DNA from: Vulcanimicrobiota bacterium
Lineage (GTDB): Bacteria; Vulcanimicrobiota; Vulcanimicrobiia; Vulcanimicrobiales; Vulcanimicrobiaceae
DNA: 64,000 bases
Assembly (NCBI GenBank): GCA_963820825.1
Contig: CAWGBN010000008.1
Coordinates: forward strand, 1 to 64,000
Direction: 5' to 3'
Shown here in pieces: positions 29,953-56,082 of this stretch. The stretch's first letter is position 1. Every line of letters starts with the position of its first letter. A model generated the notes under the pieces. That model was not told where the DNA came from and searched no databases. It saw nothing but the letters and a program-made list of their open reading frames with translations. Both the position numbers and the translations under genes were made by a program.

Positions 29953-30071
29953 CAATTACCCCGTGCGGAACGCAGCGGGATGGGGGTCGCGACCCCGGCC
30001 GGGAACCGCCCGGCCCCGTCGAACGTTATCATTCTAGGGCATCCAGGGGGTCCAAACGGAGTAAGCGATTC

Positions 30072-31454
30072 GTGGTTCGACTCGGTTTTCGCCGCCGTGC
30101 CTTTGGCATGGGGCTCGCAGTTCTTATTTTGGCCGGGTGTGGCGGGGAGCAGAGTGCGTCGAGCGGCGGCGCCCTGCCGCGGCAGCTATCCCCTTCCGCC
30201 CGCGGCGGCCTCGATAAGATTCAGCACGTCGTCATTATCATTCAGGAGAACCGGAGTCTTGACAATCTTTTTCAAGGGTTTCCGGGCGCCGACACGCAGT
30301 CGTACGGCCGAGACAGCTCCGGAAGAAAGATAACGCTAAAGCCGATACCGCTGGAAACCACGTGGGACGTCGCCCACAGCGCGGAAGCGTTTTTTGAGTC
30401 TTGCAACGGAACGGGTAGTTATCCCGGAACCCATTGCCGGATGAACGGCTTCAATAAGGAGTACCACGGCTGCGGTCACGGCGGCTATCCAGCCTGTCCG
30501 TTCAAGAATCCGCAGTACGCCTACGTGCCGCAAGATGAAACCAAGCTTTACTTTGAGATGGCGCAACAATATGTTTTGGCGGATCATACGTTCGCGTCGA
30601 ACTTTGATGAGAGCAGTTTCGTCGCCCATGAGTATCTGATCGCCGGTCAAGCCGGCTCCACCGTAAACTTCCCATCCACGAACGAATGGGGTTGCGAAGG
30701 AGGGCCCACCGACACAATCCCGACGGTCAACCAAGAGCGAATCATAGATTATAACGATCCCATTCGCGTGTGCTTGAATAACTTAACGCTCGGTGACGAG
30801 CTCGACTCGGCCGGCGTTTCGTGGCGATATTACACTGCGGCCACACCGCACGGAAACGGCTCGTTCTGGAGCGCGTACTCCGCGATTAAACACATCTACA
30901 ACGGTCCGGACTGGGATAAGGATGTTATCAGCCCCCAGACGGTCTTCTTCACCGATGTTACGAACGGAACGTTGGCGGCCGTAAATTGGATCACTCCCAC
31001 CTGTGAGAATTCCGACCATGCGAGCTGCGGGTCGAACACCGGGCCGGCGTGGGTAACGTCGATCGTCAACGCAATCGGTCAGTCCCGGTATTGGAATTCA
31101 ACCGCGATCTTCGTAACCTGGGACGATCCCGGCGGCTGGTACGATCACGTGGCGCCGAAGATGCTCGACTACGATGGCCTCGGTTTTCGCGTACCGCTCG
31201 TGGTGATCTCCCCTTATGCCAAGGAAGGATATGTCTCACATGCTCGCTACGAGCATGCCAGCCTTCTTCGCTTCATTGAGGATCGGTGGGGGCTGAAAAG
31301 CCTCTCAACCAGCGATGCGCGCGCCCTATCGCCGGCAAACGATTGTTTCGATTTCAACCAACCGCCGCGAACGTTTCAAGTAATCCAATCCAGCCTGGGC
31401 AAGGATTACTTCATGCATCGGCCGCTCGACCCACGCCCGCCCGACAATGAATGA
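30072..31454 (+). CDS. phosphoesterase / phospholipase C family lipoprotein, paralogue 2
   Basis: LAGC lipobox; IQHVVIIIQENRSL; WDDPGGWYDHV; GFRVPLVVISPY. Confidence 0.88.
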   Translation: MVRLGFRRRAFGMGLAVLILAGCGGEQSASSGGALPRQLSPSARGGLDKIQHVVIIIQENRSLDNLFQGFPGADTQSYGRDSSGRKITLKPIPLETTWDVAHSAEAFFESCNGTGSYPGTHCRMNGFNKEYHGCGHGGYPACPFKNPQYAYVPQDETKLYFEMAQQYVLADHTFASNFDESSFVAHEYLIAGQAGSTVNFPSTNEWGCEGGPTDTIPTVNQERIIDYNDPIRVCLNNLTLGDELDSAGVSWRYYTAATPHGNGSFWSAYSAIKHIYNGPDWDKDVISPQTVFFTDVTNGTLAAVNWITPTCENSDHASCGSNTGPAWVTSIVNAIGQSRYWNSTAIFVTWDDPGGWYDHVAPKMLDYDGLGFRVPLVVISPYAKEGYVSHARYEHASLLRFIEDRWGLKSLSTSDARALSPANDCFDFNQPPRTFQVIQSSLGKDYFMHRPLDPRPPDNE

Positions 31455-31510
31455 CCGGTTAGGCGCCGACGATCAACCGTGGAAGATCGACGACGTCCGC
31501 ATCTAAGCCG

Positions 31511-33019
31511 ATTCTTAGAGGGCTGATAGCGGCCGTTGTCATCCCGGTTGCGGCTTGCGCCCGCGTTACCGCGCCCGTCTCTTCGTTGCCCGCGTCTCAC
31601 GCCGCGAGCACCGTCGTCGATCGAAGTGCGGCTCCGTGTACGGTAAGTTACGACGGAGTGATTTGGTATCGAGTCCGGGCGGGCGATTTTCCGCCCATCG
31701 ATGTGCGCTTGGCGAAGTGCGGCTTCAACCTTTTAGGTAGAAATCTGTCTCCGGATCGCCCGCATTGGTCGATACCATCGACCGCGACGCAGACGCGCTT
31801 CGTCTTTGGCTCTCTACAGGAGGCGGACTCGATGGAGGACACGCGTAACATCGAGCGAACGGCCGCTTCGCACCGCGTGCCGGTATCTTGGATGGTGGGC
31901 GATATCCAGCACATGGCCCGTGCCGCCGAGTACAACGCGTTTCACGCTGCGAACGGCGACGATGCCCAGGCTCAGTTCTATAGCAACCTGCATGCCGCGA
32001 TGAAGGCAAAGCTTCCGTGGTACGTTCCGGCCGTCGGCATTCTAACGGCCGGCGAAGAACGCGACGTTCGGCGCGCTCTCTCATTTGGCGAGCATGCGTT
32101 CTGGGGCATTACCTGGAACAGTCGCGGTACCGACGAGACATTCGACTACGGCGCGCCATGGGGCACCTATTGCGCCGACGTTCATTCCTACAAGCGGCCG
32201 CAGCCGGATGGGGGGTGCGCGCTGCTCGCCTTTGAGTGGACGGCGCGCGATCTGACGCGCGCGTACCTTAGCGGGCGTGAAGCGGCCTTCTCTACCGACC
32301 CCGACGATCTGTTGCGGCGCGGTGGATTCTCTCCGAAGAGCGCTGCCGCGTATTCGCGAAGAATTGTCGATGCATATGCTGCGGCCGGTCAGTCCCAGCC
32401 GATCGTCATGATCGTGCAGCAGGAGGCAAGTGACGGCTCCATTGCGGCCGACGCGGCGGTCTTGAGTGCGTTGTTCGACGAGGCCGTGCGTGACGGAATG
32501 AAACTCGAAACGCTAAGTCAGGCGTCTCGAGACGCTCGCACGTTCTCTGCCGCGCCGCGTGCGGTAGCGTTTCCGTACATATTTGGAGGTAGAGAAGTTA
32601 AGTCAGACGTGCTTCACGGCGGCACGCTCTATCCGGCGACGATCGACTATCACGACTCCCGCGTCAGCATGACATTTCTTTCGGGGCACACGTTGCCGAC
32701 CCGGGTGTTCCGATACGCGGACTATCCGGTCTCGCGTTTCAATCGCCCGCTACCCGAAGTGCCGGTTCGGGAGATGCCGTTGCTTCTGCGCGCGAGCGTT
32801 AAGGACGGATGGCTGACGTTCGCGTTCGCAGCGCCCCGAGCACTGCGTTTCGGAGTGGCAATCTGGAGCGATCCGTCGCAACTGAAGATTACCGGTCCTG
32901 GGGAGATCCGCGCGGGGCGCGCGGCTACGGTCTTGGTCTTTGACCTCAAGGCCGGCACGAGCAACGTGCGCTATCGCTGTAGGGGCTGTCGCAGCTCGAC
33001 GTTTACCTATTCGCTGTAG
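31511..33019 (+). CDS. hypothetical lipoprotein (possible DUF3863/deacetylase-like fold); true start upstream of 31586
   Basis: in-frame LIAAVVIPVAAC lipobox upstream of the first canonical start; WGITWNS..GAPWGTY..SYKRP..FEWTARD. Confidence 0.6.
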   Translation: MLRGLIAAVVIPVAACARVTAPVSSLPASHAASTVVDRSAAPCTVSYDGVIWYRVRAGDFPPIDVRLAKCGFNLLGRNLSPDRPHWSIPSTATQTRFVFGSLQEADSMEDTRNIERTAASHRVPVSWMVGDIQHMARAAEYNAFHAANGDDAQAQFYSNLHAAMKAKLPWYVPAVGILTAGEERDVRRALSFGEHAFWGITWNSRGTDETFDYGAPWGTYCADVHSYKRPQPDGGCALLAFEWTARDLTRAYLSGREAAFSTDPDDLLRRGGFSPKSAAAYSRRIVDAYAAAGQSQPIVMIVQQEASDGSIAADAAVLSALFDEAVRDGMKLETLSQASRDARTFSAAPRAVAFPYIFGGREVKSDVLHGGTLYPATIDYHDSRVSMTFLSGHTLPTRVFRYADYPVSRFNRPLPEVPVREMPLLLRASVKDGWLTFAFAAPRALRFGVAIWSDPSQLKITGPGEIRAGRAATVLVFDLKAGTSNVRYRCRGCRSSTFTYSL

Positions 33020-33091
33020 GCAAGACCACCCCGCCCGCGAGCCCGCACCGCGCTAGAAGGTCTTTAATCACTGATCTAAAACTGAGTCCAG

Positions 33092-33118
33092 CGCTACCCC
33101 GCGGTGCCGTGTCAGCAT
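33092..33118. repeat. displaced copy of secA 3' end, putative att site
   Basis: 18/23 identity to 42361-42383; minus strand reads HGTAG* versus secA HGTAA*. Confidence 0.6.
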
Positions 33119-33181
33119 CCAATTATTGAACGAAATGTTGGAGAAGCACTAACATTGCGAACGTCGGAAAACGCCTTCGCC

Positions 33182-33390
33182 GTGCGCGCTTCACCCCGTA
33201 TATTTCGTGCGGTCGGCGCGCTCGCTGTCCTTTGGGTACCCAGCCTTGCGGCATCGGCGCAGTCGGCGACGCCCAGCCCTGCGCCGTCTTCGACGCCGGC
33301 ATCGGTCTGGCAACAATCCGCCGAACACGCACTTCGCGATCTTTGATCCCTGCGGCGGCCCCAAGGAACTGCTTAATAAGTTTGGCCCCA
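33182..33390 (+). pseudogene. N-terminal stub of a secreted/transporter-like protein
   Basis: signal peptide, ATPSPAPSSTP linker, then DPCGGPKELLNKFGP in another frame; truncated. Confidence 0.4.
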
Positions 33391-33733
33391 GGCGCTCCGC
33401 TACGCGATCGGCGTGGGCCTCGTGCCAAACACCCTAAAGGTATCCGCGGAAACGAATCGCTCGGATCGATCTCAGCAACCCGCTCACCGCGCTGATCGCA
33501 ACCGCGCTGTCCTGGAGCGGCCTTACGATCTGGACATTAAGCTGGTTCGTATCCATGCCTCTGCTCGGCTTTCTACTCGCACGCTTGCGGCCTGTTCGCG
33601 GAATCGCGGGGAATCACTTTTCCGGAAATGCCTAGTTTTGCAAGGAAAACCACGGCTTTCTATGTACTCTGAGCATTCGGATCAAGCATGATTAGCGATG
33701 AAATAGGTGCGAGACACAAATAGGAGGGCTCCA

Positions 33734-34822
33734 ATGAAATCCTCGAGATTGGCATCCGGCGTCTTGGGCGCCATCGCCGCCGTCGCGCTTTTGGCCGGAT
33801 GCGGCAGCGGGCTACACTCCTCGTCCTTTGCGTCGGCCGGACAAGGCTTGGCGTCCGGGGGACGCGGGCTCGGACCGATCGGGCACCACTACCTGGCGAA
33901 CTACACCTCGGTACGCGCGCCCCAAGTCAAGCCCGACCATCACAAATCGTGGGTCTCGCCGGACGTCAAGAGAGCGCCTCGTTTACTCTTCGTCTCGGAC
34001 GACTCCTCCAACGACGTGTACATCTTCACGATGCCGGCGATGCAACTCAAGGGTACGCTGACGGGCTTTAACGGGCCGCAGGGTATGTGCTCGGACAAGC
34101 AAGGCAATATCTGGGTTGTCAATACCGGCACCAAACAGGGCCTCAAGTACTCGCGCACCGGCCAATTGCTGGGCTCGGTGAGCGATCCGTCCGGAACTCC
34201 GGTGGGTTGCGCGGTCAATCCGGCCAACGGCGACCTGGCCCTCAGCGAAACCCAAGGCTCCAGCGGCGCGGGCGCCATCGAAGTCTACCACAATGGCTCG
34301 GGAAGCCCCACCAGATATAGCAACCCGTCACAGTACGAGTACTTCTTCCCGGCGTACGACACCGATGGCAATCTTTACGCCGACGGCTTCAACTACCCGA
34401 CCTTTGCCGTCATGATTTCGGAGCTGCCGTCGGGGAGCAGTGCGATGCATACCGTCAACTACAGCGGCGGAACGATTCAATTTCCGGGTGGCGTGAACTG
34501 GGATAGAGTGAAGGGCCAGCTGGTCATCAACGATCAGGAGTGCCAGGGAGTCTACGCTTCGTGCGCGTACCAGCTGACGGTATCGGGTTCGAGCGCGACG
34601 ATTGTCGGATCCACTCCGCTGAACAACTTCGACGGCACCGCCTGCGACGTCGATCAAGGCACGATCGCTCCGTTTGGCAAGTACTTCGCGGGCCCGTGCA
34701 TCACCTTCGCATACAGCGTGAGCTCAGTGGATCGTTGGGCGTATCCGTCGGGCGGTACGCCGGGTCACTACAACAACTCGTTGGTCATCGAACCGATCGG
34801 TTCGGCAATCAGCAATAAGTAG
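33734..34822 (+). CDS. NHL-type propeller lipoprotein
   Basis: AGGAGG RBS; LLAGC; SWVSPD..LLFVSD..PQGMCSD..PVGCAVNP. Confidence 0.85.
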   Translation: MKSSRLASGVLGAIAAVALLAGCGSGLHSSSFASAGQGLASGGRGLGPIGHHYLANYTSVRAPQVKPDHHKSWVSPDVKRAPRLLFVSDDSSNDVYIFTMPAMQLKGTLTGFNGPQGMCSDKQGNIWVVNTGTKQGLKYSRTGQLLGSVSDPSGTPVGCAVNPANGDLALSETQGSSGAGAIEVYHNGSGSPTRYSNPSQYEYFFPAYDTDGNLYADGFNYPTFAVMISELPSGSSAMHTVNYSGGTIQFPGGVNWDRVKGQLVINDQECQGVYASCAYQLTVSGSSATIVGSTPLNNFDGTACDVDQGTIAPFGKYFAGPCITFAYSVSSVDRWAYPSGGTPGHYNNSLVIEPIGSAISNK

Positions 34823-34844
34823 CCGCGATTGTTCGAACGCCACC

Positions 34845-34937
34845 CTATCGCTCGCGGCTTGTTCGCGCATTCGGGCCGGGGCGCAGGTGCCGCATCCGCG
34901 GCATTGGGACGCGCTTCTCCAACATGCGCACTCGTAA
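34845..34937 (+). pseudogene. HTH-tail remnant, copy B
   Basis: LSLAACSRIRAGAQVPHPRHWDALLQHAHS*; homologous to 37768-37890 with mostly synonymous differences. Confidence 0.65.
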
Positions 34938-35019
34938 GCGCTCGCTCGGCTGGGGTAGCGCTGCGGCGTATCGAATGTAATTAGTCGTCGAACTGTCGAG
35001 GCCTCGGGGAGCAAATCAA

Positions 35020-36270
35020 ATGAGGATTTTTTCTTTCAACTGCTACGCGCTAAGTGTCAGCGTCGCGGCAGTATTGGTTACCGGGTGCGCGGGATCGCAG
35101 CCAATCGGCGCGCCAAGCGCGGCGCTGCAAAGCGGCATCAGGCCTGGATCGTCATCCTACAAGGTGCTCTACGCATTCGATGGCTTTCCGAACGGGGAAC
35201 AGCCGATCGGTGGGCTACTCGACGTCGGCGGCACGCTCTACGGCGCCGCCTCCAACGGCGGCCAAAGAAACTGCCGCCCGCGGGCAAGCGGCGGCTGTGG
35301 AACCGTTTTCAGCATTACGCCGAAGGGTGCGGAAAAACTGCTCTACACCTTCACGACAAAAACCGGAGTATACCCGGAGTCGGGTTTGATCGACGTCGAC
35401 GGCACCTTGTACGGCACGACGTATGAGGGTGGTCCAACCGGCGGCGGAACCGTTTACAGCGTCAGCACGACCGGATCTGAGGCAGTACTTTATAGTTTCA
35501 AAGGTACCACGGACGGCACGTATCCTCACGCAGGCGTGATCTCCGTAAAGCATATCCTCTACGGGACCAACACGTACGGCGGCGGTCGCCACCGCGACGG
35601 AGGAACCGTTTACAGCCTCACCCTGTCAGGCGTGCATACGGTCCTGCACAGCTTCAGAGCGACGACGGACGGGCACGACCCCGAGGGCGGTTTGATCGAC
35701 GTCCACGGCATACTGTACGGAACGACGGTTTTCGTTAGCCGTGCAGCAACCTGCTGCGGAATCGTTTATAGCATGACAACGACCGGCCAGGAGACGGTGC
35801 TGTATCGTTTTGCGGGTGGCTCCGATGGGCGCGGCCCGACGGGCGATTTGCTGAACGTCAACGGCACGCTCTACGGCACGACCAGTAGCGGCGGCGGCAC
35901 GGGATGCGGAGGCAACGGCTGCGGAACAGTCTACACCATAACGCCGAGCGGCACGGAGAACGTGCTCTACAAGTTCTTAGGCGGCTCCGACGGCGCGAAT
36001 CCAGAAGCCGGTTTGATCGATGTAAACGGCACGCTTTACGGCACGACGGCCGGCGGCGGCGCGGCCTCGTGCTCCTGCGGCACCGTCTACAGCATCAGCA
36101 CCAGCGGCACGGAGACCGTGCTCCATGCGTTCACCGGCGGCACCGACGGTAAGGACCCGCGGGCGCCATTGACCGCCGTCAAGGGCACACTCTACGGCAC
36201 CACTGCATACGGCAGCGATGGATGCAAGTCCCAAGAAGGTTGTGGAACGGTCTTCGCGTTGACTCCTTAA
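35020..36270 (+). CDS. GloVer-type propeller lipoprotein (7 repeats)
   Basis: GGAG RBS; VTGC; ends GTVFALTP. Confidence 0.9.
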   Translation: MRIFSFNCYALSVSVAAVLVTGCAGSQPIGAPSAALQSGIRPGSSSYKVLYAFDGFPNGEQPIGGLLDVGGTLYGAASNGGQRNCRPRASGGCGTVFSITPKGAEKLLYTFTTKTGVYPESGLIDVDGTLYGTTYEGGPTGGGTVYSVSTTGSEAVLYSFKGTTDGTYPHAGVISVKHILYGTNTYGGGRHRDGGTVYSLTLSGVHTVLHSFRATTDGHDPEGGLIDVHGILYGTTVFVSRAATCCGIVYSMTTTGQETVLYRFAGGSDGRGPTGDLLNVNGTLYGTTSSGGGTGCGGNGCGTVYTITPSGTENVLYKFLGGSDGANPEAGLIDVNGTLYGTTAGGGAASCSCGTVYSISTSGTETVLHAFTGGTDGKDPRAPLTAVKGTLYGTTAYGSDGCKSQEGCGTVFALTP

Positions 36271-36343
36271 ATCGCGCAAGGCGCATTTGGAATTACGGCT
36301 AACCCGTTCGCGACTGCACAGCCGGTAAAAAGGAGCAAAGCTT

Positions 36344-37609
36344 GTGACACACTGGAATCTTAATCGCTACGCGTTGAGATGCGGCGTCGTCGCTGCATTG
36401 CTTGCTGGCTGCGGGGGATCGCAGCCCCCGATCGACGCGCCTGGTCTAATGGCTCAAGGTCCAGCGCTCGCGGCACGCACCAGTAGCTCGAACTACAAGG
36501 TCGTGTATAGCTTTGGCGCACCCCCGGATGGAGGCTGCCCCCTCGCCGGTCTGATCGACGTGGGCGGCACGCTCTACGGAACGACGAGCGGAGGCGGGGC
36601 ATACACTATCGATAGCAACTGCTTTTATCACACGGGTCTATTCGGAACGGTCTTCAGTATTACAACGGGCGGCAAGGAGAACGTGCTGCACAGCTTCGGC
36701 AACTATCCAGACGGGAGCGAACCTGTTGCCGGCCTAATCGACGTGCACGGCACGCTCTACGGCACGACGAGGGGAGGCGGCAGCACCGCTGGGGGCGGCG
36801 GAACCGTCTTTAGCATCACCACGAGCGGCACCGAGCACGTTCTGCACAGCTTCCTTGGCAGAAAACCTGATGGCGATAATCCCAACGCATCTCTGATCGA
36901 GCTAAAGGGTAAGCTCTACGGCACGACGAGCAATGGCGGCAAGCACGTGAACAGCGGCGGAACGTTCTTCAGCCTTACGGCGGACGGCACGGAGAAAGTG
37001 CTCCACTTTTTCGGAGGAAGCCACGGCAGGAATGTCGAGGCGGGCCTAATCGATGCCGGCGGCGCGCTCTACGGCACGGCTTATTCGGGGGGCGCTTACC
37101 ACAAGGGCGTGGTCTTTAGAATCACTCCAAGCGGCAGGGAGAAGGTGCTCCACAGCTTCGGCAACGGAACCGATGGCGCTTATCCCACCGCATCCTTGAT
37201 CGAGGTAAACGGCACGCTCTACGGCACGACAGAATTCGGTGGCGCGTACAAAGGTGGCACGGTTTTTAGCATCAGCACGAGCGGCACGGAAGAAGTGCTG
37301 CACAGCTTCGGCTACGGGACCGATGGCGCTGATCCCGCGGCATCCCTAATCGAGGTAAACGGCACGCTCTACGGCACGACCAGCGAAGGCGGGTCGTACA
37401 GGTGCGGCCGCACCACTAAGTATTTCAACTGTGGAACTGTGTTCAGCATAACGCCAAGCGGCACGGAAGAGGTGCTCCACAGCTTCAGCAAAGGAACCGA
37501 CGGCACTCATCCGGTCGCGCCCCTGATCGACTTGAAGGGCACACTGTACGGCACGACGGAATATGGCGGCGCCAACCAAAACGGAACGGTCTTCGCGTTG
37601 ACTCCATAA
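36344..37609 (+). CDS. GloVer-type propeller lipoprotein (7 repeats)
   Basis: AGGAG RBS; LLAGC; ends GTVFALTP. Confidence 0.9.
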   Translation: MTHWNLNRYALRCGVVAALLAGCGGSQPPIDAPGLMAQGPALAARTSSSNYKVVYSFGAPPDGGCPLAGLIDVGGTLYGTTSGGGAYTIDSNCFYHTGLFGTVFSITTGGKENVLHSFGNYPDGSEPVAGLIDVHGTLYGTTRGGGSTAGGGGTVFSITTSGTEHVLHSFLGRKPDGDNPNASLIELKGKLYGTTSNGGKHVNSGGTFFSLTADGTEKVLHFFGGSHGRNVEAGLIDAGGALYGTAYSGGAYHKGVVFRITPSGREKVLHSFGNGTDGAYPTASLIEVNGTLYGTTEFGGAYKGGTVFSISTSGTEEVLHSFGYGTDGADPAASLIEVNGTLYGTTSEGGSYRCGRTTKYFNCGTVFSITPSGTEEVLHSFSKGTDGTHPVAPLIDLKGTLYGTTEYGGANQNGTVFALTP

Positions 37610-37714
37610 CGCGTATTCGCAATCAGGTGGGAGCCTGTACTTGATCCGCGCCGCGTCGACAACAGGAGCAAAGCATTGACTCTTAGTCGCGCCGCAACGC
37701 TGCCGTCAACCACC

Positions 37715-37890
37715 GCGCGAGGCGAGGCGATCAGCGAAGAGTATCGCCGCAATCGCGGCTGGGCGCGTTCTCGCTTAAGGAGATCGCCAAGGTTACAGGG
37801 TTGTCGCTCGCGGCCTGCTCGCGCGTCCGTGCCGGTGCGAGGGTGCCGCATCCGCGGCACTGGCTCGCCTTGCGCGAGCTCGTACAAGGA
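37715..37890 (+). pseudogene. HTH-tail remnant, copy C
   Basis: RGEAISEEYRRNRGWAR, frame change, then FSLKEIAKVTGLSLAACSRVRAGARVPHPRHWLALRELV. Confidence 0.65.
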
Positions 37891-38001
37891 GGAGAGCTTG
37901 GACGTAATCATGGATTCAGGTTAAACCGTGCCTCTCCCAGTTTTTCGCGACTATCGTCCAGCCGGCGACGTAATAGCGCGCTTCCCAACCAAAGGATACG
38001 C

Positions 38002-38433
38002 ATGCGAAACATTTTGATCGTCTTGGTGGCCCTCGTTGTCAGCTTGGTACCCCAAGTCGGCTATGTTCACGCATCGAGCACGCCTCCCACAACGGTTACG
38101 GCCATTGACATAGCCCTGGAGCCAGATGCGACGATGCTCCAGCACGCGGCGGCACTCAACGCGCGGTTGCGACAAAGCTTTCCAAAAGGATACGCACTCA
38201 ATGCGAGTCACCGCCCGCATGTGACCATGCTCCAACGGTACGTCCGCACAGCGGACCTCCCCAGAGTGTACGCAGCAGTAGAAAAAATCATGAGCGCAAA
38301 GAGTCCAGCAAGGTGGAAGCTTCAAGCATTCAAAATCGACCATGCCGTTTGGAGCGGCCTGGCTCTCACGGTCATTCTCGCCAAACCGCCGGCGTACGGC
38401 ATGGGCCGCTACACTCTTGCGCATGGAGTATGA
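38002..38433 (+). pseudogene. truncated secreted 2H-phosphoesterase-like protein
   Basis: signal peptide; AIDIALEPD..RPHVTMLQRYV with one HxT motif; second motif missing. Confidence 0.55.
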
Positions 38434-38434
38434 A

Positions 38435-39664
38435 ATGATTGCACGTTTCCGCGGCGTTGTCATGATCGCGGTGGTCGCGGCAATGCTCGCGAATTGCGAT
38501 GGATTGCAGACGTCGGTCAGACAGCCAGGCGCGATGCCCCAAAACATCACGGCGCCGGCGGCGTCGCAGCATTTGGGATCATCCGGCTACAAAATCCTCA
38601 CGAGCTTCAGCGGCCTTAATGGCGACAAGAACCCTGCTGGGGATGTAGTCGCGATGCGTGGTAAGCTATACGGCACTACCAGCGCGGGTGGTGTGCTTGG
38701 CGCAGTCTTCAGCGTAAACCCGGCTACCGGCACCGAGAGGGTGTTGCACCATTTTCAAGGCCAACCCGATGGCGCTGCCCCCCTCGCCGGTTTGACCGCC
38801 GTCGACGGCAAGCTCTACGGCACTACCGCTAGCGGGGGTGTGTATGAGGCCGGAACCGTATTCAGCGTGACCCGAGGCGGTAAAGAAACCGTGTTGTACA
38901 GCTTCGGCGGCTACGGCTCTGATGGCGAGTTGCCTCAGGCACCCTTGATATACGTGAATAGCGAGCTGTACGGTACGACATATAATGGCACCGGTTCTGC
39001 GGGCTCTGGTACAGTCTTCAGCGTTACTTTGAATGGCCAAGAGACAGTGCTGCATCGCTTTACGAATTATCCTAGTGACGGCGCGTGGCCCTTGGCTGGG
39101 CTCACCTATGTAAACGGGCTCCTATATGGCACTACGACTGCCGGCGGAACGACGCACGGGACTCATGGCGCGGGGACCGTCTTTAGCATCACGTCAGACG
39201 GTAGAGAGAACCTAGTTTTCAGTTTTCTTGGAGACACGAATGGCTCCGACCCAATGGCAGGCTTGATCAGCGCCAACGGCGCCCTCTACGGCACGACCAC
39301 GCAAGGCGGCAAGTACCGCTGTGGTACGGTTTTCCGCATCAGCAAGAGTGGGAGTGAAAAGGTCGTCCACAACTTTCGAAATGTTCCCGATGGCTGCTTC
39401 CCATATGCTGGATTGATCGATGTAAAGGGTACGCTTTACGGGACGACCGGCCACGGCGGATCATACTACCAAGGACGCGATGGTGGCGGAACCGTGTTCA
39501 GCATCGCGCCAACCGGCAAAGAAACGGTGCTGCATAGCTTTGGCTCGGGCACAGACGGGTCTGACCCGCTAGCCGGACTCACGAACCTGCACGGCACACT
39601 TTACGGAACGACAAGTCGAGGCGGCGCTCACGGTTACGGAACAGTCTTTGCATTGACCCCATAG
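38435..39664 (+). CDS. GloVer-type propeller lipoprotein (7 repeats)
   Basis: LANC lipobox-like; ends GTVFALTP. Confidence 0.88.
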   Translation: MIARFRGVVMIAVVAAMLANCDGLQTSVRQPGAMPQNITAPAASQHLGSSGYKILTSFSGLNGDKNPAGDVVAMRGKLYGTTSAGGVLGAVFSVNPATGTERVLHHFQGQPDGAAPLAGLTAVDGKLYGTTASGGVYEAGTVFSVTRGGKETVLYSFGGYGSDGELPQAPLIYVNSELYGTTYNGTGSAGSGTVFSVTLNGQETVLHRFTNYPSDGAWPLAGLTYVNGLLYGTTTAGGTTHGTHGAGTVFSITSDGRENLVFSFLGDTNGSDPMAGLISANGALYGTTTQGGKYRCGTVFRISKSGSEKVVHNFRNVPDGCFPYAGLIDVKGTLYGTTGHGGSYYQGRDGGGTVFSIAPTGKETVLHSFGSGTDGSDPLAGLTNLHGTLYGTTSRGGAHGYGTVFALTP

Positions 39665-39858
39665 CGGACGGCTCCCCGTACGCGAAATGGGTGCTTAGCG
39701 GAGGAGAGACGCACATCGATGCATCGGCGATCACATTCCATCCCCGTGCAGCGCCAAAAGCGTTACGCCATATAGCCTTTTCGCGACGCCGCGCGATTTG
39801 CAAACGGCGCTGCAAACTTTGCACGCGGCGCGGGCGATCGAGCGCGCTACCAAAAAGC

Positions 39859-40427
39859 CTGATATGTTACCGAACGGGCCGCGTTGAACGGTTCCCTTAA
39901 CCCGAAAGGGCGGGTCGGCACATCCTAAAACGCCTTGGGCTTCGAGCTCGGAAATAAGATCGATGGCCGACCCGATGACTGCTATCCTAGGAGATCGGAC
40001 CGTATCTTAGGCCGCGTACGTCGCGAAGCCTGTATGCATCAGGGTGATCGTTCGGGATAGCTTGCCGGCGAGTGAGGTGAGCGTGGAGATCCTAGGCATC
40101 GACGTCGGAAAGCACGAGATGCACGCAGTTCTGCTGCAGGACGATCGTTCGACATCGAAAAGCGTCGCCAATTCGGCAGCCGGTTTTAAGCAGTTACAGA
40201 GCTGGCTGCGCAATCGCAAAGCCGAGAGGGTGCACGCGTGCCTCGAGGCCACCGGCGGTTGGAGCGAAGATCTGGCGCTCGCGCTGCACGAGGCCGGCCA
40301 TGTCGTCAGCCTGGTCAACCCCATGCGCATCAAAGCATTCGCCAAGAGCGAGATGCTGCGGACAAAAACCGACCGCATCGATGCAGCACTCATTGCACGG
40401 TTCTGTCGTACGCATGTGCCAGGGGGC
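39859..40427 (+). mobile_element. IS110-family element, left end and 5' part only
   Basis: CT core at 39859-60; long non-coding left end; DEDD transposase N-terminus. Confidence 0.8.
39872..40062 (+). ncRNA. IS110 bridge RNA (5' stem, target-binding loop, donor-binding loop)
   Basis: stems CGGGTCGGC/GCCGACCCG and GCTATCC/GGATAGC each enclose an internal loop and inner hairpin; guides match the left junction. Confidence 0.75.
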
Positions 40428-40430
40428 TGA
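40083..40430 (+). pseudogene. IS110 transposase, truncated after the RuvC-like domain
   Basis: GAGGTG RBS; ILGIDVGK..CLEATG..VNP..KTDRIDAALIA. Confidence 0.92.
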
Positions 40431-40920
40431 GCCCCGGAATCTAGTCCAATGGGAATTGTGGGTTTCCGGCCAAGATGGCCTGCAAAGGAGACCCGCATGC
40501 GCAAGCGACGCTACACCGAAGCGCAGATCGTCGCGATCCTTCAAGAGCTCGACGCCGGCCGATCCGCAGCTGAGCTCGCTCGCAAACACGGCGTTCACGT
40601 CAACACGCTGCGACTGTGGCGAAGCAAATACGCCGGGCTCGACATCAGCGATCTCACCCGTCTGAAAGAGCTCGAATCCGAAAACTCGCAGATGGAGCGC
40701 ATTGTCGCGCGTCAAGCCCTCGAGATCCGCGCGATGTCCGAGGTGATTCGAAAAAACGGGTGGGGCCCTCAGCGCGCAAGGAAGCGGTGAGGGCGTTAGA
40801 GGACGAGGGGATGAGCCAGCGGCAAGCGTGCCGCCTCGCGACCTGCCCCCGACCGACCGTACGATACAAACCACGCAAACGCCCCGGCGACGAGCACGTC
40901 CGCGATCGGTTGCGTTGCAT
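40428..40920 (+). mobile_element. IS3-family element fragment (orfB truncated)
   Basis: begins near TGAGCCCC; orfA; A6C slippery site 40751-57; orfB start SQRQACRL; no DDE domain. Confidence 0.8.
40497..40790 (+). CDS. IS3 transposase OrfA
   Basis: MRKRRYTEAQIVAILQE..LARKHGV..WRSKYAG..RLKELESEN. Confidence 0.9.
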   Translation: MRKRRYTEAQIVAILQELDAGRSAAELARKHGVHVNTLRLWRSKYAGLDISDLTRLKELESENSQMERIVARQALEIRAMSEVIRKNGWGPQRARKR

Positions 40921-41123
40921 GGCGTTTAACGAAAGTGGAGATCCCTTGATTTGGATAGACGAATAGTCCTTAAACCTGCGTGCCGCATGAACCAGACCGC
41001 GGTGCGTCATTTGGTGCCTATCGGGAGTCGAATCAGTTAAATGTGCGTTCAAGTGGTCTAAGCTGGTGCGATAATATAGTAGGTTTATTTGTCCGTTCAC
41101 TCAGCGAAAGGAAATCGTGATCT

Positions 41124-42137
41124 GTGCAGGCTGTTGTAACCTTGGAAGCCCGTTATATATTTGTCGACATAGTCGGTTATACGTTAAAGCGCAGTATCGA
41201 AGCTCAAGTTGATTTAATAAAGGCTCTAAATGAAATCATCATTCAGGCCTTTGAGCGAGAGGGAGTCCCACGAGAGCGCTTGATGTTTTTTCCGGTCGGT
41301 GACGGCGTGTGTTCAGCCATTCTAGGAAACGCGCCGGATCGAGCTGCTGACGATTATGATGCTCACGTCCGAGTAGCTTTGCGAATGCTGGAATTGTTGC
41401 ATGAATACAACGCGCGCACGGAAGACGCGATGCGACGTTTCTCTATTCGAGTTGGGCTAAATGATAACATAGATAATGCCGTAACTGATATTAACGGAAA
41501 CGATAATCTTGCAGGCTCGGGAATTAACGGGGCACAAAGAGTAATGAGCGCGGCCGAGGCGAGTCAGCTATTTGTAAGCAGAGCCGTTTATGATAGATTG
41601 CGTGACCGCGAGTTCTATATGAATGCATTTCGAGAGGTATCAAGCTACACGAAACACGGGGAACGGCTCACTGTTTACCAAGTCATTCTTAACGATCGCC
41701 CTGGGCTTGATGTATCGCTTCCGAGGTCTCTGCAGGCTGCGGCTGAGCCTAGGCTGCCGCGCCTCTTAGGGTACTACATGCGCGCCGCTTTACAGCACCA
41801 GGAAGAGTTGCTCGGGATGCCTGAACTTCCGGGAAACTCGTTGTGGGAAGACGCGGCGCGCATCATGTATTATATGATGGCATTAGATGAGGAGGCGCAA
41901 GAACGTAAAGGTCCATACGATCCACCAACGTTGATGCTTAGTCCTCGGGGCGACGTGACGTTTAGAGAGCGCCTAGCGTACTATCACTCGCAGGATGTGT
42001 GGATCATTCATCTGCTTGCGCGCAAGATTGAGGCGCTGACGACGTTTACGAACTGCTTTGACGGACCGCGCTTTGTATACGTGAATGAGTGTGGTAGGGA
42101 GAAGCTTCGTATGGATCACCCGGACCTAGCTCCATAG
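41124..42137 (+). CDS. class III nucleotide cyclase domain protein with unknown C-terminal domain
   Basis: IFVDIVGYT; PVGDG; IRVGL; GINGAQRVM; visibly AT-richer than flanks. Confidence 0.85.
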   Translation: MQAVVTLEARYIFVDIVGYTLKRSIEAQVDLIKALNEIIIQAFEREGVPRERLMFFPVGDGVCSAILGNAPDRAADDYDAHVRVALRMLELLHEYNARTEDAMRRFSIRVGLNDNIDNAVTDINGNDNLAGSGINGAQRVMSAAEASQLFVSRAVYDRLRDREFYMNAFREVSSYTKHGERLTVYQVILNDRPGLDVSLPRSLQAAAEPRLPRLLGYYMRAALQHQEELLGMPELPGNSLWEDAARIMYYMMALDEEAQERKGPYDPPTLMLSPRGDVTFRERLAYYHSQDVWIIHLLARKIEALTTFTNCFDGPRFVYVNECGREKLRMDHPDLAP

Positions 42138-42160
42138 CCGCGAGCAGCACAACCCGCCCA

Positions 42161-42312
42161 CGCCCGCGAGGCCGCATCGCGCTAGGCGCTTAGCGTAGCC
42201 TCGCCGCTGCGCAGCACGGCGCCGATCGCGTGCGCAATTGCGCCTCGCAGTGCCTCGCAGTCTCGCAGCTTAGGTTATCGATACTTGGCGCTTAGATCGC
42301 GCCGCAGCTTAG
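42161..42312. repeat. element-end repeats next to secA (hairpin plus tandem CTCGCAG x3, GCTTAG x4)
   Basis: 23/25 match to 33032-33056; GCCTCGCAGT at 42242 and 42252, CTCGCAG at 42262. Confidence 0.65.
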
Positions 42313-42362
42313 CCGGCCCAGCGCAGGGGGCCTCGTTTTGAAGTGGTCTAACTCCTATCCCG

Positions 42363-45023
42363 CTATGCTGCCGTGCCGTGGCACTTCTTGTATTTTTTTC
42401 CGCTGCCGCAGGGGCACATTTCGTTGCGGCCGACCTTCGGCTGTTCACGCTGCATCGGTTTGGTGGGTGACTCGTCGTCTTTGTTCGTGTGGAACTGTTG
42501 GACGCGCCGGCCGGCGCCGGGCATTGGGCCGAGGAGCTGTTCGACTTGTTGCGCCGGTAATGCGTTGCCGGCGGCAACCGGTTGCGGCACAAGTTCGCCC
42601 GAGGGAATCGGCTCGAACTGCGGCGGGGGCGGGCCACCCGGCGAGTACGGCGTGAGCTGTTGCGGCGGCGGACCGTGCTCGATGACGACGCGAAAGACGC
42701 CTTTGATCGCTTCGTCGGCGATGTTGTTCTTCAGCGACTCGAAGATCTCGAAGGCTTCCTTCTCATACTCGACGCGCGGGTCTTTTTGACCGTAGCCGCG
42801 CAGGCCGATGCCGGTCTTCAAGTGATCCATTACGTAGAGATGGTCGACCCACTGGCGATCGATGATCGGCAGCAAGAGATAGCGCTGCTCGACCACGCGC
42901 AAGATCTCCGGCGTTACTTCCTTCTCCTTGGCTTCGTATGCTTCGCGCGCTTTCTGCTGCAGCACGCGGCGAATCTCTTCGCGGTCCTTGCCGGTTAGTT
43001 CGTCGACGAAGAGGCTGCGCTTCGCGGGAAAGACCAGATCGAGCGCGTTGAGCATCTCGGGGAGGTCCCACTCCTGCGGATGGACGTTCTCGGGCGCGTT
43101 CTCCTCGAGCGCTTCGTTGACTTTTGCCTCGAGCGTCTGCGTCATGAACGTCCGCGAATCGAACGTTCCTTCGAGAATCGCACGGCGGTCGGCGTAGATG
43201 ATCGTGCGCTGTTTGTTCATCACGTCGTCGTATTCGAGCACGTGCTTGCGAATCTCGTAGTTGTGATTCTCGACCTTGCCCTGCGCGCGCTGAATCGACT
43301 TAGTCACCAAGCCCGATTCGATCGGCTGCTCGTCGGTAAAGCCGACGCGCTCCATGATGTTCGTCATCCGGTCGCCGCCGAAGAGGCGCATTACCTCGTC
43401 TTCAAGCGAAACATAGAAGCGCGACGAGCCGGGGTCGCCTTGGCGCCCCGAGCGTCCGCGTAGCTGGTTGTCGATCCGCCGCGACTCGTGGCGTTCGGTG
43501 CCGATAATGTGCAGGCCGCCGTTCTTCGCGACGCCTTCGCCGAGCTTGATGTCGGTGCCGCGCCCGGCCATGTTGGTGGCGATCGTCACCTGGGCTTCTT
43601 GGCCCGCGTCCTTGATGATCTCGGCTTCTTGTTCGTGATACTTCGCGTTGAGCACGTTGCACTCGACGCCCTTGCGCCGCAGCATCGTCGCGAGCAGCTC
43701 GCTCTTCTCGATCGAACGCGTGCCGACGAGCACCGGCCGGCCCTTTTTGTGCTCGTCGATGATCTCGTCGACCACCGCATCGAACTTCGCCTTCTCGCTC
43801 TTGTAGACGATGTCGGAGTTGTCTTTGCGGACCATCGGCATGTTCGTCGGTACGACGACGACGTCGAGGCCGTAGATGTCGCGGAACTCTCGCTCCTCGG
43901 TCTTCGCCGTACCGGTCATGCCGGCGAGATGATCGTAGAGCCGGAAGAGATTCTGAAAGGTAATCGTCGCCAGCGTCTGGTCCTCACCGCGGACCTTGAT
44001 ACCTTCCTTCGCTTCAATTGCCTGGTGGATGCCGTCGGAGTAGCGCCGACCGTACATCAGGCGCCCGGTGAACTCATCGACGATGATCACCTCGCCATCC
44101 TTGACGATATACTGCTGGTCGCGATGGAAGAGGTTCCAGGCCTTGAGCGCCGCGTTGAGCTGATGCGTCAGCTCGATGTTGCGCTGCTCGTAAAGATTCT
44201 GGATGCCGAGCATCTTCTCGACGTGGGCGACGCCGGTTTCGGTGATTGGAACCGCGTGCGCCTTCTCGTCGACGGTGTAATCCTCGCCCTTCTTTAGCCG
44301 CGGCAGAATCTGCGCGAACTTGTCGTAGAGCTCGCCCGACTCTTGCGAGGGTCCGCTGATGATCAGCGGCGTGCGCGCCTCGTCGACCAGAATCGAGTCG
44401 ACTTCGTCGACGAGCGCGAAGTAGAGCTCGCGTTGGACGAGGTCTTCGACTTGCCAGGCCATGTTGTCGCGCAGATAGTCGAAGCCCACCTCGTTGTTCG
44501 TAACGTAGGTCACGTCGGCGTTGTAGGCGTCGCGGCGCTGCGCCGAATCGAGTCCGTGCTGAATGATGCCGACCTTCAAACCGAGGAACTCATAGATCGG
44601 GCCCATCCACTCGGCGTCGCGGCGGGCGAGGTAATCGTTCACCGTAACGACGTGAACGCCGCGTCTTTCGAGCGCGCGCGCGTAAACGGGAAGCGTCGCG
44701 ACGAGGGTCTTGCCTTCGCCGGTCTTCATCTCGGCGATGCGCCCCTCGTAAAGCACTTGACCGCCCATGATCTGGACGTCGAAATGACGCATCCCGACGG
44801 TGCGCACGCCGGCTTCGCGGACGACCGCAAAGACCTCGGGCAGCATATCGTCGAGCGCCTCGCCCTGCTCGAGCCGGCCGCGAAACTCGGCGGTCTTCGC
44901 TTGCAGCTCGGCGTCGGAGAGCGCCTTGATCGATGCTTCGAATTCGTTGACGGCCCGCGCAGTGCGCCGCAGACGTGCGACTTCCCGCTCGTTACCGTCG
45001 ATGATGCTTTTAATGAACGACAT
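42363..45023 (-). CDS. secA: preprotein translocase ATPase SecA
   Basis: [42 protein letters not shown]. Confidence 0.99.
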
Positions 45024-45029
45024 GGACCC

Positions 45030-46235
45030 TTACGGCACGAGGCCGATTCCCGTTACCGCTCCTGGAGACGTGTAGAACGACGTCGGAGGCTGGTTGCCGC
45101 TTACCGTCGTCGCGTAGACGAGGATCACGCCGCCGCCACCCGCGGTGGAGTCGGCAACGTAGATAATCCCGTTGGCGTTGACCTTGATGTCGGTCGGCGC
45201 GTTGAGCATCGTCTTGCATCCGCGGATCGTGCGAATCGGCTTGGTGAATGGAATCTTCTTATTATACGGCGGGAAGACGAGTATCGCGGGGCCGCTGGTC
45301 GAGCCGCAGCTCGCCTTCGAGCGTCCCTGATCTACGATGTAAATGTACCCCAGCGTGTCGACCGCGACGCTGAATGGCGAGACGACGCCGTTCTTGGCCG
45401 TAATCGCAAAGCGGGGATAGATGTTAATCGGCGTCGGCGTCGGCGACGGCGTCGGCGAGGGACTCGGCGATCCGCTTGGCGTGGCCGATGGGGTCGGCGT
45501 CGGCGAGGGCGTTGCGGTTGGCTTCGGCGTCGGCGACGGCGTCGGCAGAAGGAACTGTTCGACCGTCGCGCCGGCGATGTTCGCAACGTAGATGTGGCCC
45601 TGCTTGTCGACGCTCACGCCGCCGGGTACCTTCAGATCCGTCTTCGGTCCGGCGATCGACTGAAACGACGTCGTGCTGCCCGAGGCAAAGAGCAGGATTT
45701 GGTTGGGATAGACGGCGGTCGGGATATTATCCGCGACCACCATGATCCGCGGAACCGGAGTCGACGAACTCGAGGGACGCGGTGAGGGTCCTTTCGGGGT
45801 GAAGGCGATACCGCGCGGGCGCCCCGATATGGCCGCCGAGGTCAGCGGTATGACGTTACCGGTGGCCAGCGCTTCATACTCGATGAGCAACGCCCGACCG
45901 GTGCTCGGGTTGTAGTTGGTCACCCAGAGGTTCTGCACCCGATCGAAGGCGAGGTACTGCGGACCGTCGAGGCCGGTATTCGAGCCGCCGATATTATAGG
46001 AAGGCCCGCCGCTCTTGACGTTCGAGTAGATGCTGATCGCGTTCTGGTTACTATTGGTCGCATAGAGCGTCTTCGACGGGAAGTTCGGCCCGACGTCGAC
46101 CCCCGACGTTTGTCCGAGGCTGCTGCAGGCAACGATCGCGCTGGTCATGACCAGCGCGAGGAAGATAACGCTGCCCTTGCGCCTCGCGCAGGCGCTCAGG
46201 AATTCTCTCACCCTCAAGCTATCAAACAATGGCAC
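45030..46235 (-). CDS. NHL-repeat lipoprotein with Pro/Thr linker
   Basis: IVAC lipobox; PTPSPTP tract; NHL-like repeats. Confidence 0.75.
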
Positions 46236-46422: not shown

Positions 46423-47244
46423 CTAAACCGCCCGGCGCAGCGGATGGTTGAGCTCGCCGGTCTGTACGAGCTTGAGCAGTTCGCCGACGGTGACGAACCG
46501 GTACCCGGCGGCTCGGAAACGCGCCACCACGTGGGGCAGGGCCTCGATCGTCGCCAGCTTCCCGCTATGCAGCAGCACGATCTCCGGCGCCGTCGCGTGC
46601 TCGAGCAGGTGATTCTCGAGCTGCGGAACGGTGACCGTTCTCCAATCGCCGCTGTCGTCGGTCCACAGCACCACGGAGTAACCGAGACTCTGCGCTACCT
46701 CCAGCGTGCGCTCCGTGTAGCGTCCGTGCGGCGGCCGCATGAGCGTGTGCACCGCGGGATCGTGGGTCAGTGGCCAGAGCGCTTCGGCGCCTTCGAGAAT
46801 CTCCCGGCGCACTGCGGCGTTCGTCTCTTCGTCGAGGTTCGGATGCGTGTAGGTGTGATCGGCAATCTCATTGCCGTCGCGTTCGATGCGCTGCGTGAGC
46901 TCGGGCCACTCCTGCGCGTCCTTCCCGATCAAGAAGAACGTCGCCGGCACTTGGAGATCGTGCAGCATGTCGAGCAGCATCGGCGTGAAGACCGGATAGG
47001 GACCGTCATCGAAGGTGAGCGCGATCAGCCGCGGCCGGTTCGAACGGTCTCCGGTTGAGAACTCGTGCGTCAGCCGATAGATCCGGGGAGCCGGTGCGCC
47101 GGAGAATTCCAAATGTACGTTTGTCTGCGGCGTAACGATCGCCGGCGTGAGATTGCTCTGACGCTCGAATTCGTGCCAGCCCCCGTAGATCGCACCGGCG
47201 AGCACGATCGCAACCACGAGCTTCACGTTACGATTTCTTTGCAA
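46423..47244 (-). CDS. polysaccharide deacetylase (NodB)
   Basis: [24 protein letters not shown]. Confidence 0.93.
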
Positions 47245-55430: not shown

Positions 55431-56082
55431 CGGCCGCCGCAAAGACCCTGAACCGGCAGGACGACGGCGACAGAAATCAGCCGCGACGAGCGCGGCCGAG
55501 CAGCGCGCCGCCGACGAGGTCGGTCAGAATAGTGCGCGCCGAGCGCTAGGCGCGACCAGCAGATCGCGACCGCGAAGACCACGAGCAGCAACGCCCCGCG
55601 GCGATCGTCCGCAGCGCGCTGCGGCAACTCCGAGGCGTAGAGCAGTCGCGGCCCAGAGGCCGTAGAAGCCCGACCGCGATCGCTGCGTGCGAGCTCGGAT
55701 ACGAAAATGTGAGCTTCGTGCTTGACGACCCAATCGAGCCGGACGCGGCCGTGCAGAAATAGTGTTGGAAGAAGTCGGCTCCGCGCCAGCAGATCAAGCA
55801 GCATGACGATGCTCAACAGATGCGCACGCGCCACGCCCGCAGGACGCGCCACGCAACCACGAGCAGCACGACGGCAGATCGGCAGCAAGACACGTCGGAT
55901 AGCACGATCCACGTCAGCCACCACGCAATCGGCGCGCCTGATTGACCCAGTAGCGCTGCTCCCAACGCGAGCGAACGCGGCAGGCTCGCCGCTGCCGCGT
56001 CACCATCCTAGCCCAGCGCGAAGAAGAGACGCGAACGCGATCGTCCGGCGCAACCAGGCTCGCGATCGACGATCCGCGTCAC
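55431..56082 (-). CDS. PAP2-family phosphatase (heavily frameshifted; ends approximate)
   Basis: [19 protein letters not shown]. Confidence 0.7.

Follow-up and report, generated by a model that had tools for sequence, protein, structure and literature searches.

Casposon remains behind secA in a Vulcanimicrobiota genome, and the secA 3' end as a probable preferred casposon target in its genus

The window analysed here is a 64,000-nt stretch of DNA from a Vulcanimicrobiota bacterium (GenBank assembly GCA_963820825.1, contig CAWGBN010000008.1, positions 1 to 64,000 of the forward strand). The source assembly comprises 2.98 Mb and is called G000 below, where G-numbers denote genomes, L-numbers loci and C-numbers contigs; its genus is labelled Ca. 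Cybelea, Eremiobacterota. The subject of this work is the 3' end of the secA gene and the variable interval behind it, which very probably holds the worn-down remains of casposons. Casposons are rare, mostly archaeal, self-synthesizing transposons that are studied as likely ancestors of the CRISPR adaptation machinery. Their integrase, a Cas1 protein with a helix-turn-helix (HTH) domain, is referred to as the casposase, and their terminal inverted repeats as TIRs. The features on which the argument depends are as follows.

42363-45023, minus strand: secA, encoding 886 aa with the Pfam domains SecA_DEAD, SecA_PP_bind, P-loop_SecA, SecA_SW and SEC-C
42376-42398, minus strand: presumed target 'leader', formed by SEC-C codons (TGCCAYGG and the sequence before it) that directly precede the duplicated segment
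42362-42375, minus strand: 14-nt target segment, made up of the last three full secA codons, the stop and 1 nt
42316-42361, minus strand: outer part of a casposon TIR, which begins GGGATAGGAG, 1 nt past the secA stop
42141-42315, minus strand: subterminal region of the casposon end, copied at C8:407996-408085; it carries short repeats of CTGCGAG type and, at 42158-42185, a 28-nt inner motif
37579-37890, plus strand: C-terminal casposase (Cas1+HTH) relic, aa 422-534 (tblastn with the casposase of the relative G034, 45% over 115 aa, E 1.5e-16)
34812-34919, plus strand: second casposase relic, aa 493-529 (tblastn, 70% over 37 aa, E 5e-10)
33092-33114, minus strand: secA-end-like copy, 10/14 in the duplicated segment and 7/8 in the adjoining upstream codons
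33029-33056, minus strand: copy of the inner motif, 25/28 to 42158-42185 (repeat family D13), 36 nt from the secA-end-like copy

The secA product is 88-93% identical to its same-genus orthologues and terminates in KKCHGTAA*, within the SEC-C zinc motif. All 11 same-genus relatives examined retain an HG[TA]AA* ending, HGAGQAA* being the ending in two relatives at the order level, and TGCCA[CT]GG precedes the last codons in G000 and in all 11 genus relatives shown. The 225 nt that separate secA from a cyclase-like gene (42141-42365) constitute a dispersed repeat with matches in 36 of 41 genus genomes and a second G000 copy at C8:407996-408200. The outer ~45 nt of this repeat recur in three settings: after secA stops, after a comM-like coding stretch, and as outward-facing inverted pairs 13-15 nt apart. 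An nhmmer profile of the TIR, built from 21 copies, matches 42362-42316 over 47 nt (model positions 1-47, 54.2 bits, E 2.8e-14 genome-wide), and this is the only full-length copy in G000. In 10 of 17 genus genomes, TIR-like sequence immediately follows the secA stop (hidden Markov model E<0.01); the profile found none at that position in three order-level relatives. CTGCGAG-type motifs are repeated several times at 42190-42300 and in the casposon ends of relatives, including the 139-nt TIR of the G034 element described next, and may be protein-binding repeats.

Complete elements bounded by the same TIR are present in relatives. These elements are 15-18 kb long, carry a solo Cas1+HTH integrase and a putative PolB-type polymerase, and have a 14-nt target duplication each. 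The first casposon of G034 (714709-729811, 15.1 kb) lies directly behind secA, and its TIR is perfect over 139 nt. On both sides stands the 14-nt duplication AGCCGCAGCCTAAG, an exact repeat of the secA end comprising its final three codons, the stop and one more base. Its casposase of 534 aa, encoded at L117:2985-4589 on the minus strand, matches PF01867 (Cas1) at 1.4e-33 and has a weak C-terminal HTH; the PDB matches were all deposited as Cas1 and include, at 1.6e-13, 6opm_A, which we take to be the M. mazei casposase. Further junctions, each reading reverse-complemented TIR, 14 nt, TIR, were found in G034 at 714.7, 704.58 and 701.78 kb and delimit elements of ~10, 2.8 and 1.7 kb. At least four elements are arranged in tandem behind secA with a 14-nt copy of the secA end between each, the one nearest secA being intact and the second retaining a Cas1 fragment only. 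The register of 42362-42375 in our window is that of the 14-nt duplication at every element border in G034.

The same TIR also bounds elements inserted elsewhere. In G015, a 17.6-kb element (C13:120573-138204, L112/L113) has this TIR inverted at both ends and a 14-nt duplication conserved at 13 of 14 positions; the first ~40 nt of the TIRs are near-identical, and the similarity fades by ~50 nt. This element splits a comM/Mg-chelatase gene mid-gene, after ...EEGTVTI, into N- and C-terminal parts, leaving the target gene broken, and contains Cas1 in two overlapping frames (PF01867, 1.1e-23 and 3.6e-08) together with an HNH gene. Matching 13-14-nt duplication pairs were found at L131, L145, L154 and L144 as well. 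A search for Cas2 (PF09827) that was positive in 6 control genomes found none in G000, G034, G015 or G047, and no repeat array was detected in L117, the G034 casposon locus. Because they combine TIRs, 14-nt duplications and Cas1 without Cas2 or an array, we identify these elements as casposons. One could suppose instead that the sequence past the secA stop is a host terminator or 3' untranslated region motif that casposons resemble or have captured, and its occurrence after secA in most of the genus and its G+C-rich run following an A-rich stretch would agree with this. The same sequence, however, forms exact inverted pairs of up to 139 nt around Cas1/PolB elements with 14-nt duplications, one of them in comM, far from secA, and it also forms outward-facing pairs 13-15 nt apart; Rfam gave no match at E<=1 in 30000-46000. 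We give this explanation very little credence.

These observations lead us to propose, with considerable confidence, that the secA 3' end is the preferred target of a casposon family in this genus, and that the DNA beside secA in the window consists of worn-down casposon remains. The architecture of the elements and the repeated use of one register suggest site-specific integration catalysed by the casposase. The enzyme would bind the TIR ends of the element and a two-part target, in which the SEC-C codons (TGCCAYGG and upstream) would act as the 'leader' of the next 14 nt; that a leader may be required at secA is suggested by analogy with archaeal casposases (excerpts of PMC9939771). Staggered joins would be made on either side of the 14 nt, which would then be duplicated by gap repair. 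The copy adjacent to secA would be in frame, leaving SecA unchanged, and would keep the leader and stay a live target; in this scheme the gene end is duplicated, not replaced. New elements would enter next to secA and push older ones outward, producing a tandem array that decays with distance, in which the youngest element may be the one nearest the gene. The window would represent a late state of such an array, with an intact TIR and subterminal region (42141-42361) followed by cargo-type genes and the two casposase relics and ending at a decayed junction at 33029-33114.

Besides the casposase relics, the interval and its left border contain the following genes.

41124-42137, plus strand: cyclase-like gene (adenylate/guanylate), PF00211 3.2e-08, in a low-G+C patch (~0.50 vs 0.60)
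40194-40874, minus strand: open reading frame (ORF) with no Pfam, NCBIfam or PADLOC match; weak matches downstream of secA in G018 and G034
38342-39664, plus strand: GloVer tandem-repeat gene, TIGR03803 1.1e-76
36344-37609, plus strand: GloVer tandem-repeat gene, TIGR03803 2.2e-81
35020-36270, plus strand: GloVer tandem-repeat gene, TIGR03803 1.8e-59
33707-34822, plus strand: NHL-repeat beta-propeller gene, weak NHL/SGL Pfam matches
31586-33019, plus strand: conserved host gene bounding the variable stretch on the left; 80-87% orthologues in 9 genus genomes, DNA homology ending at 33018-33030

The two relics are related to each other, 34812-34919 and 37804-37868 having 83% DNA identity (repeat family D9). 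A GloVer gene follows each of them, and the same layout is found in the intact secA-proximal casposons of relatives. Of 65 casposase loci, 37-38 have GloVer homologues, vs 14% of equal-size G000 windows, and 41 have NHL homologues, vs 19%; these enrichments are only rough, because the loci vary in length and belong to related genomes. GloVer and NHL genes would, on these counts, be typical casposon neighbours or cargo in the genus. Since only two C-terminal relics are present, the window's own casposase copy is defective, and since the relics number two, the interval contains at least two decayed units. In our reading, 33.1-42.36 kb consists of two or more decayed casposon units, with a still intact end in front of them. 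Composition was considered as an island mark and rejected: there is no island-wide G+C shift, low G+C being confined to the cyclase-like gene. The protein encoded by that gene consists of a Guanylate_cyc domain and a C-terminus of ~160 aa without assignment, the G+C content dips to ~0.50 at 41000-42000, and the gene may have been recently acquired. PADLOC returned nothing for the cyclase-like protein, the ORFs 40194-40874, 40654-41100 and 40007-40504, or the 31586 protein. None of the 24 sequencing runs listed contained more than 0.07 of the words sampled from 41800-42800.

An earlier note on this DNA had pointed to the secA-end-like copy at the far side of the interval. Read directly and recomputed, 33092-33114 matches 42361-42383 at 18/23 in direct orientation, encodes HGTAG* on the minus strand where secA encodes HGTAA*, and has the 8-nt block GTGCCGTG in common with it; the arms ATGCTGCC (42365-42372) and GTCAGCAT (33111-33118) are 7/8 complementary, as that note had stated, which we read as coincidence. 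Matches to the secA end are not common genome-wide: on both strands of the whole 2.98-Mb assembly, the 33092 copy is the sole match of at least 18/23 besides secA itself, followed by 26 matches at 17/23. To allow for the look-elsewhere effect, 1615 long-ORF 3' ends were examined as a control, and 58 of them (3.6%) had a direct match of at least 18/23 within +-15 kb; a 64-kb window should offer about two such pairs by chance. Because that many gene ends match equally well, the 23-mer alone is not beyond chance for a window of this size.

A chance origin of the 23-mer, tenable from the gene-end control alone, was dropped once the adjacent 28-nt motif was found. This inner motif, which has three good copies only in the G000 genome, and the secA-end-like segment have the same order and orientation at 33029-33114 as at secA; by a rough estimate, the coincidence of a 23-mer match with an adjoining inner motif has a probability of ~1e-4. 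Furthermore, the stretch after the 33092 copy aligns to the stretch after secA with a score of 52.3, compared with 28+-4.8 for shuffled sequences (maximum 44), and none of 500 shuffles reached 52.3. We take the 33092 copy to be homologous to the secA end and not a chance match, because a 25/28 inner motif lies 36 nt away in the same order and orientation. It is probably a decayed older target/casposon junction, that is, a displaced copy of the secA end; it may alternatively be a decayed member of the stand-alone class of segments described below, or the relic of a rearranged junction. When the secA ends of relatives were searched for self-matches, G034 gave two at 18/23, which are array junctions; a 19/23 self-match in G047 lies inside unrelated sequence and was taken as chance.

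Several observations weigh against the casposon interpretation or limit its reach. After secA, the TIR profile matches weakly in 2 of 17 genus genomes and not at all in 5 of 17, and at L165 the two target-like flanks are inverted, not direct. The putative polymerase of the first G034 casposon is a 1027-aa protein with no Pfam match and, as a single protein or as a 6-sequence profile, no PDB match; within its family of seven, two members (G000 homologues, 26.4 and 27.9 bits) pass the PF03175 DNA_pol_B_2 cut-off of 25.8, one matches weakly and four do not match. This protein contains the sequence YAMEDTDSM, with a DTDS motif, its nearest ESM Atlas clusters are polymerase clusters, and the family consensus, compared by eye with known motifs, presumably has Exo and Pol motifs; its structure as predicted by AlphaFold has a mean pLDDT of 33, and the PolB assignment is thin. 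The interval in the window is without an intact casposase or PolB gene. No second TIR in the window scores better than E 1.6, 33115 has no partner TIR, and over 32950-33250 the TIR profile found nothing at E<=1000, the 'decayed TIR' after the 33092 copy being visible by eye only. The 33092 copy is not a plain 14-nt target duplication, because it matches the 14-nt segment at only 10/14 and the similarity extends 8 nt past the duplication. Part of the interval may be unrelated DNA, because none of the 65 casposase loci contains a homologue of the cyclase-like gene or of ORF 40194. All genomes compared are metagenome-assembled, so that repeats may be misassembled, and the genome counts are of related genomes that are not independent of each other; none of the conclusions depends on the unpublished genome G030. 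Finally, the practical result for the window itself is modest, because it holds only debris.

Taken to its limit, such an objection would confine the casposon-derived DNA to the ~220 nt beside secA and treat 33.1-42.1 kb as fast-evolving chromosome with surface-protein paralogues and the 33092 copy as a chance match. This would be in keeping with the lack of a second TIR, with the absence of the cyclase-like gene and ORF 40194 from casposase loci, with the 3.6% of gene ends that have an equally good match nearby, and with the presence of GloVer and NHL genes in 14% and 19% of G000 windows. Against it stand the two casposase relics inside the interval, each with a GloVer gene after it as in the intact secA-proximal casposons of relatives, and the 28-nt casposon-end motif, which has the expected order and orientation at a distance of 36 nt from the 33092 copy. 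We regard so narrow a casposon contribution as improbable.

The earlier note had itself proposed a different origin, a ~9.3-kb lambda-type tyrosine-recombinase island integrated at GTGCCGT, with attL at 33092-33114 and attR at 42361-42383, that supplied new last codons and later lost its integrase gene. The 18/23 direct repeat with its 8-nt identical block and 7/8 inverted arms, the secA-like ending encoded by the copy, and the varying content between the 31586 gene and secA among relatives all speak for such an island. Lambda-type islands at the 3' ends of tRNA, tmRNA and other genes likewise leave the gene intact and a displaced copy of its end at the far side of the insert. Unlike these islands, the locus has no tyrosine integrase, no identical core and long inverted-repeat ends, and its duplication would result from staggered joins followed by repair instead of being brought in on attP as a gene end. 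No integrase-family Pfam match was obtained in 13 ORFs of the region or 22 flanking ORFs, and no tRNA or tmRNA gene was found in the window. The sequence adjoining secA is a casposon TIR; the AA* ending and ~40 nt past the stop are common across the genus and so not special to an island; and only 8 nt are identical in the 18/23 match.

Comparison with relatives also argues against this island. G000 remains homologous to G034 and G047 across secA, up to 15-37 nt past the stop (42326-42348), and on the other side the homology ends at 33018-33025, at the stop codon of the 31586-33019 gene, instead of at GTGCCGT, where the island would have its breakpoints. The 31586 gene and secA, 9.3 kb apart in G000, are separated by 55-58 kb in both G034 and G047, with order and orientation kept; the interval genes have only 25-50% identical paralogues in those two genomes, and the content of 12-31.6 kb is scattered in relatives. 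By eye, no copy of the secA end is present in the 180 nt past the stop of the 31586 gene in 9 close orthologues (78-93% over the C-terminal part compared) or 2 distant ones (47-49%). Because homology to relatives ends elsewhere, there was no clean 9.3-kb insertion with breakpoints at GTGCCGT. Much of the note's broader picture holds: recurrent insertion at the last secA codons is supported by the TIRs after secA in relatives and by the G034 tandem array, the DNA left of secA is mobile-element-derived, as its TIR and casposase relics attest, and the secA reading frame survives insertion. Relatives have intact elements behind secA, with an integrase of the Cas1 type. The note's statement that no integrase gene is left in the interval needs amending: a tyrosine integrase is absent, but two Cas1 integrase relics are present. 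The lambda-type enzyme with its 7-bp overlap gives way to the Cas1-family integrase, long TIRs and 14-nt duplication of the relatives' elements at the site, and GTGCCGT lies across the boundary where the upstream secA codons meet the duplicated 14 nt; the 7/8 arms play no part in the casposon reading. A single ~9.3-kb element is not supported, given one TIR without a partner at 33115 and two casposase relics, which make at least two units, nor is a replacement secA C-terminus, given the HG[TA]AA* ending of all 11 same-genus relatives. We consider the tyrosine-recombinase island extremely unlikely.

Casposases are widespread in the genus: 28 of its 41 genomes yielded Cas1, which in six of them (G034, G047, G017, G008, G013 and G006) lies 3-12 kb behind secA. 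A casposase search of species-representative genomes gave 65 loci, the titles of which are Eremiobacterota, Ca. Cybelea or Vulcanimicrobiota metagenome-assembled genomes and one delta proteobacterium. The secA 3' end is inside 17 of these loci, with the casposase mostly convergent with secA and 0.8-5 kb off, and many secA-containing loci retain C-terminal relics only, as in the window.

G000 itself has casposon sequences outside the window. Casposon parts bearing the putative PolB gene, 57% and 44% identical to the G034 polymerase, lie at a contig end (C2:407276-411734) and a contig start (C9:4-3658; L183/L184), together with two small conserved ORFs. G000 may hold unassembled intact elements, because the assembly seems to break in casposons. 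A second casposon graveyard with Cas1 and PolB fragments occupies C8:379619-384997 and C8:405250-408260 (L185, L186); a C-terminal casposase relic with 87% identity is found there, as are a further copy of the subterminal region and two TIRs that face outward from a 14-nt target-like spacer. In another genome, G040, a ~50-nt comM-like fragment plus TIR occurs three times in one orientation on C3 (L114/L115; TIR tips at 642801, 632005 and 629973). At least two of these copies have ~200 nt of common non-coding sequence upstream, and no intact comM lies upstream. This locus had been a candidate comM insertion and was rejected as such; it is a repeated comM-like fragment plus TIR, which simple target duplication does not explain.

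Segments resembling the secA end also occur apart from secA. At six junctions (L121:16446, L131:14479, L135:14145, L154:15289, L162:4702 and L111 in G004:C218), such a segment stands directly before a TIR. The segments have a clearly common block of ~35 nt, with weaker similarity to possibly ~45 nt, span the leader and the duplicated part, and have their own distinctive codon spelling, ...AATACAAGAAATGCC.... The 4 kb upstream of the five junctions in casposase loci have nothing in common in 10 of 10 pairs, G004:C218 being outside this comparison, and the L131 and L154 segments head complete casposons with matching duplications. It is conceivable, if on balance doubtful, that casposons of this genus carry a transferable duplicate of their landing site along when they spread; the 33092 copy would possibly be a decayed member of this class of segments. 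If a detached leader-plus-duplicated unit does seed arrays away from secA, it would be an intermediate between a gene-anchored site and a free-standing leader-repeat unit. A step of this kind has been postulated in accounts of how CRISPR arrays originated.

The elements described here can be compared with several known systems. Tn7 generates a duplication of 5 bp, against 14 nt here. Like the casposons behind secA, Tn7 at attTn7 (glmS; a comparison made in excerpts of PMC4046053) recognises the 3' end of an essential conserved gene, spares that gene and piles up at the site; it differs in using TnsABC+D in place of Cas1 and in inserting downstream of the stop, whereas the duplication here includes the last codons. 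According to excerpts of PMC4046053, PMC9939771 and PMC4779613, casposons have TIRs, duplications with a median of 15 nt, and a target composed of a leader and a duplicated segment; they occupy the 3' termini of aEF-2 genes and tRNA genes, leaving these unaltered, and tandem arrays with a common duplication are known. The archaeal families described there, thaumarchaeal family 1 at the aEF-2 3' end and euryarchaeal family 2 at tRNA 3' ends (A. boonei, M. mazei; excerpts of PMC4046053 and PMC9939771), have in common with the present elements a Cas1-type integrase without Cas2 or CRISPR, a PolB-type polymerase, putative in the present case, TIRs, a ~14-15-nt duplication, and a target that overlaps the last bases of a conserved gene, leaves it intact and is in two parts, of which the leader part would apply here by analogy. 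In contrast to those families, the host here belongs to the Eremiobacterota, the target is secA (SEC-C codons and stop), comM is split mid-gene, and damaged, by a sister set that has the same TIR, the TIRs are long (139 nt perfect in one element), and GloVer and NHL surface-type genes are often neighbours.

The tandem casposons of Methanosarcina (Krupovic et al. 2016; excerpts of PMC4779613) are the closest parallel to the G034 array in that one site is reused, elements are separated only by a common duplication, one copy is often inactivated, and related elements occupy a second locus with a near-identical duplication. Two elements were reported there, whereas at least four stand in a row in G034, with debris genus-wide and relics only in the window. 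The bacterial family 3 elements AceAut-C1, NitAL212-C1 and HenMar-C1 (excerpts of PMC4046053 and PMC4779613) resemble ours in having a bacterial host, a Cas1 with HTH, a PolB, putative in ours, and an HNH gene, the last in the G015 element, a likeness in gene content. In excerpts of the 2016 survey (PMC4779613), all bacterial casposons then known were intergenic, whereas the elements here overlap the end of a coding gene or interrupt a gene. A literature search of open-access papers and preprints found nothing pairing casposons with secA or with Eremiobacter. The system is a casposon system of known kind; the host phylum, secA and comM as targets, and the abundance and length of the arrays are new.

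These casposons are of interest in several respects. They abound across a whole genus of soil bacteria, one that belongs to an uncultured and little-known phylum, and they home to the last codons of the essential gene secA, with a sister set going to comM and with leader-proximal stacking much as spacers are stacked. They provide a sequence-defined bacterial target, the SEC-C codons and the adjoining 14 nt, for testing how a Cas1 enzyme reads a leader and a repeat. A casposon target at this position also explains the region behind secA as a breakpoint between conserved and scrambled synteny.

Elsewhere in the window, an 822-aa open frame at 28986-31454 joins an ADH_zinc_N part to a phosphoesterase/phospholipase-C-like part; the ADH orthologue of G034 (86%) is separate, and the frame probably represents two genes or a recent fusion. 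The genes at 47228-48572 (LytR_cpsA_psr) and 56008-57773 (FtsK) each appear to be broken up into overlapping ORFs, the two halves of the domain lying in different frames; these breaks may be frameshifts or assembly indel errors.

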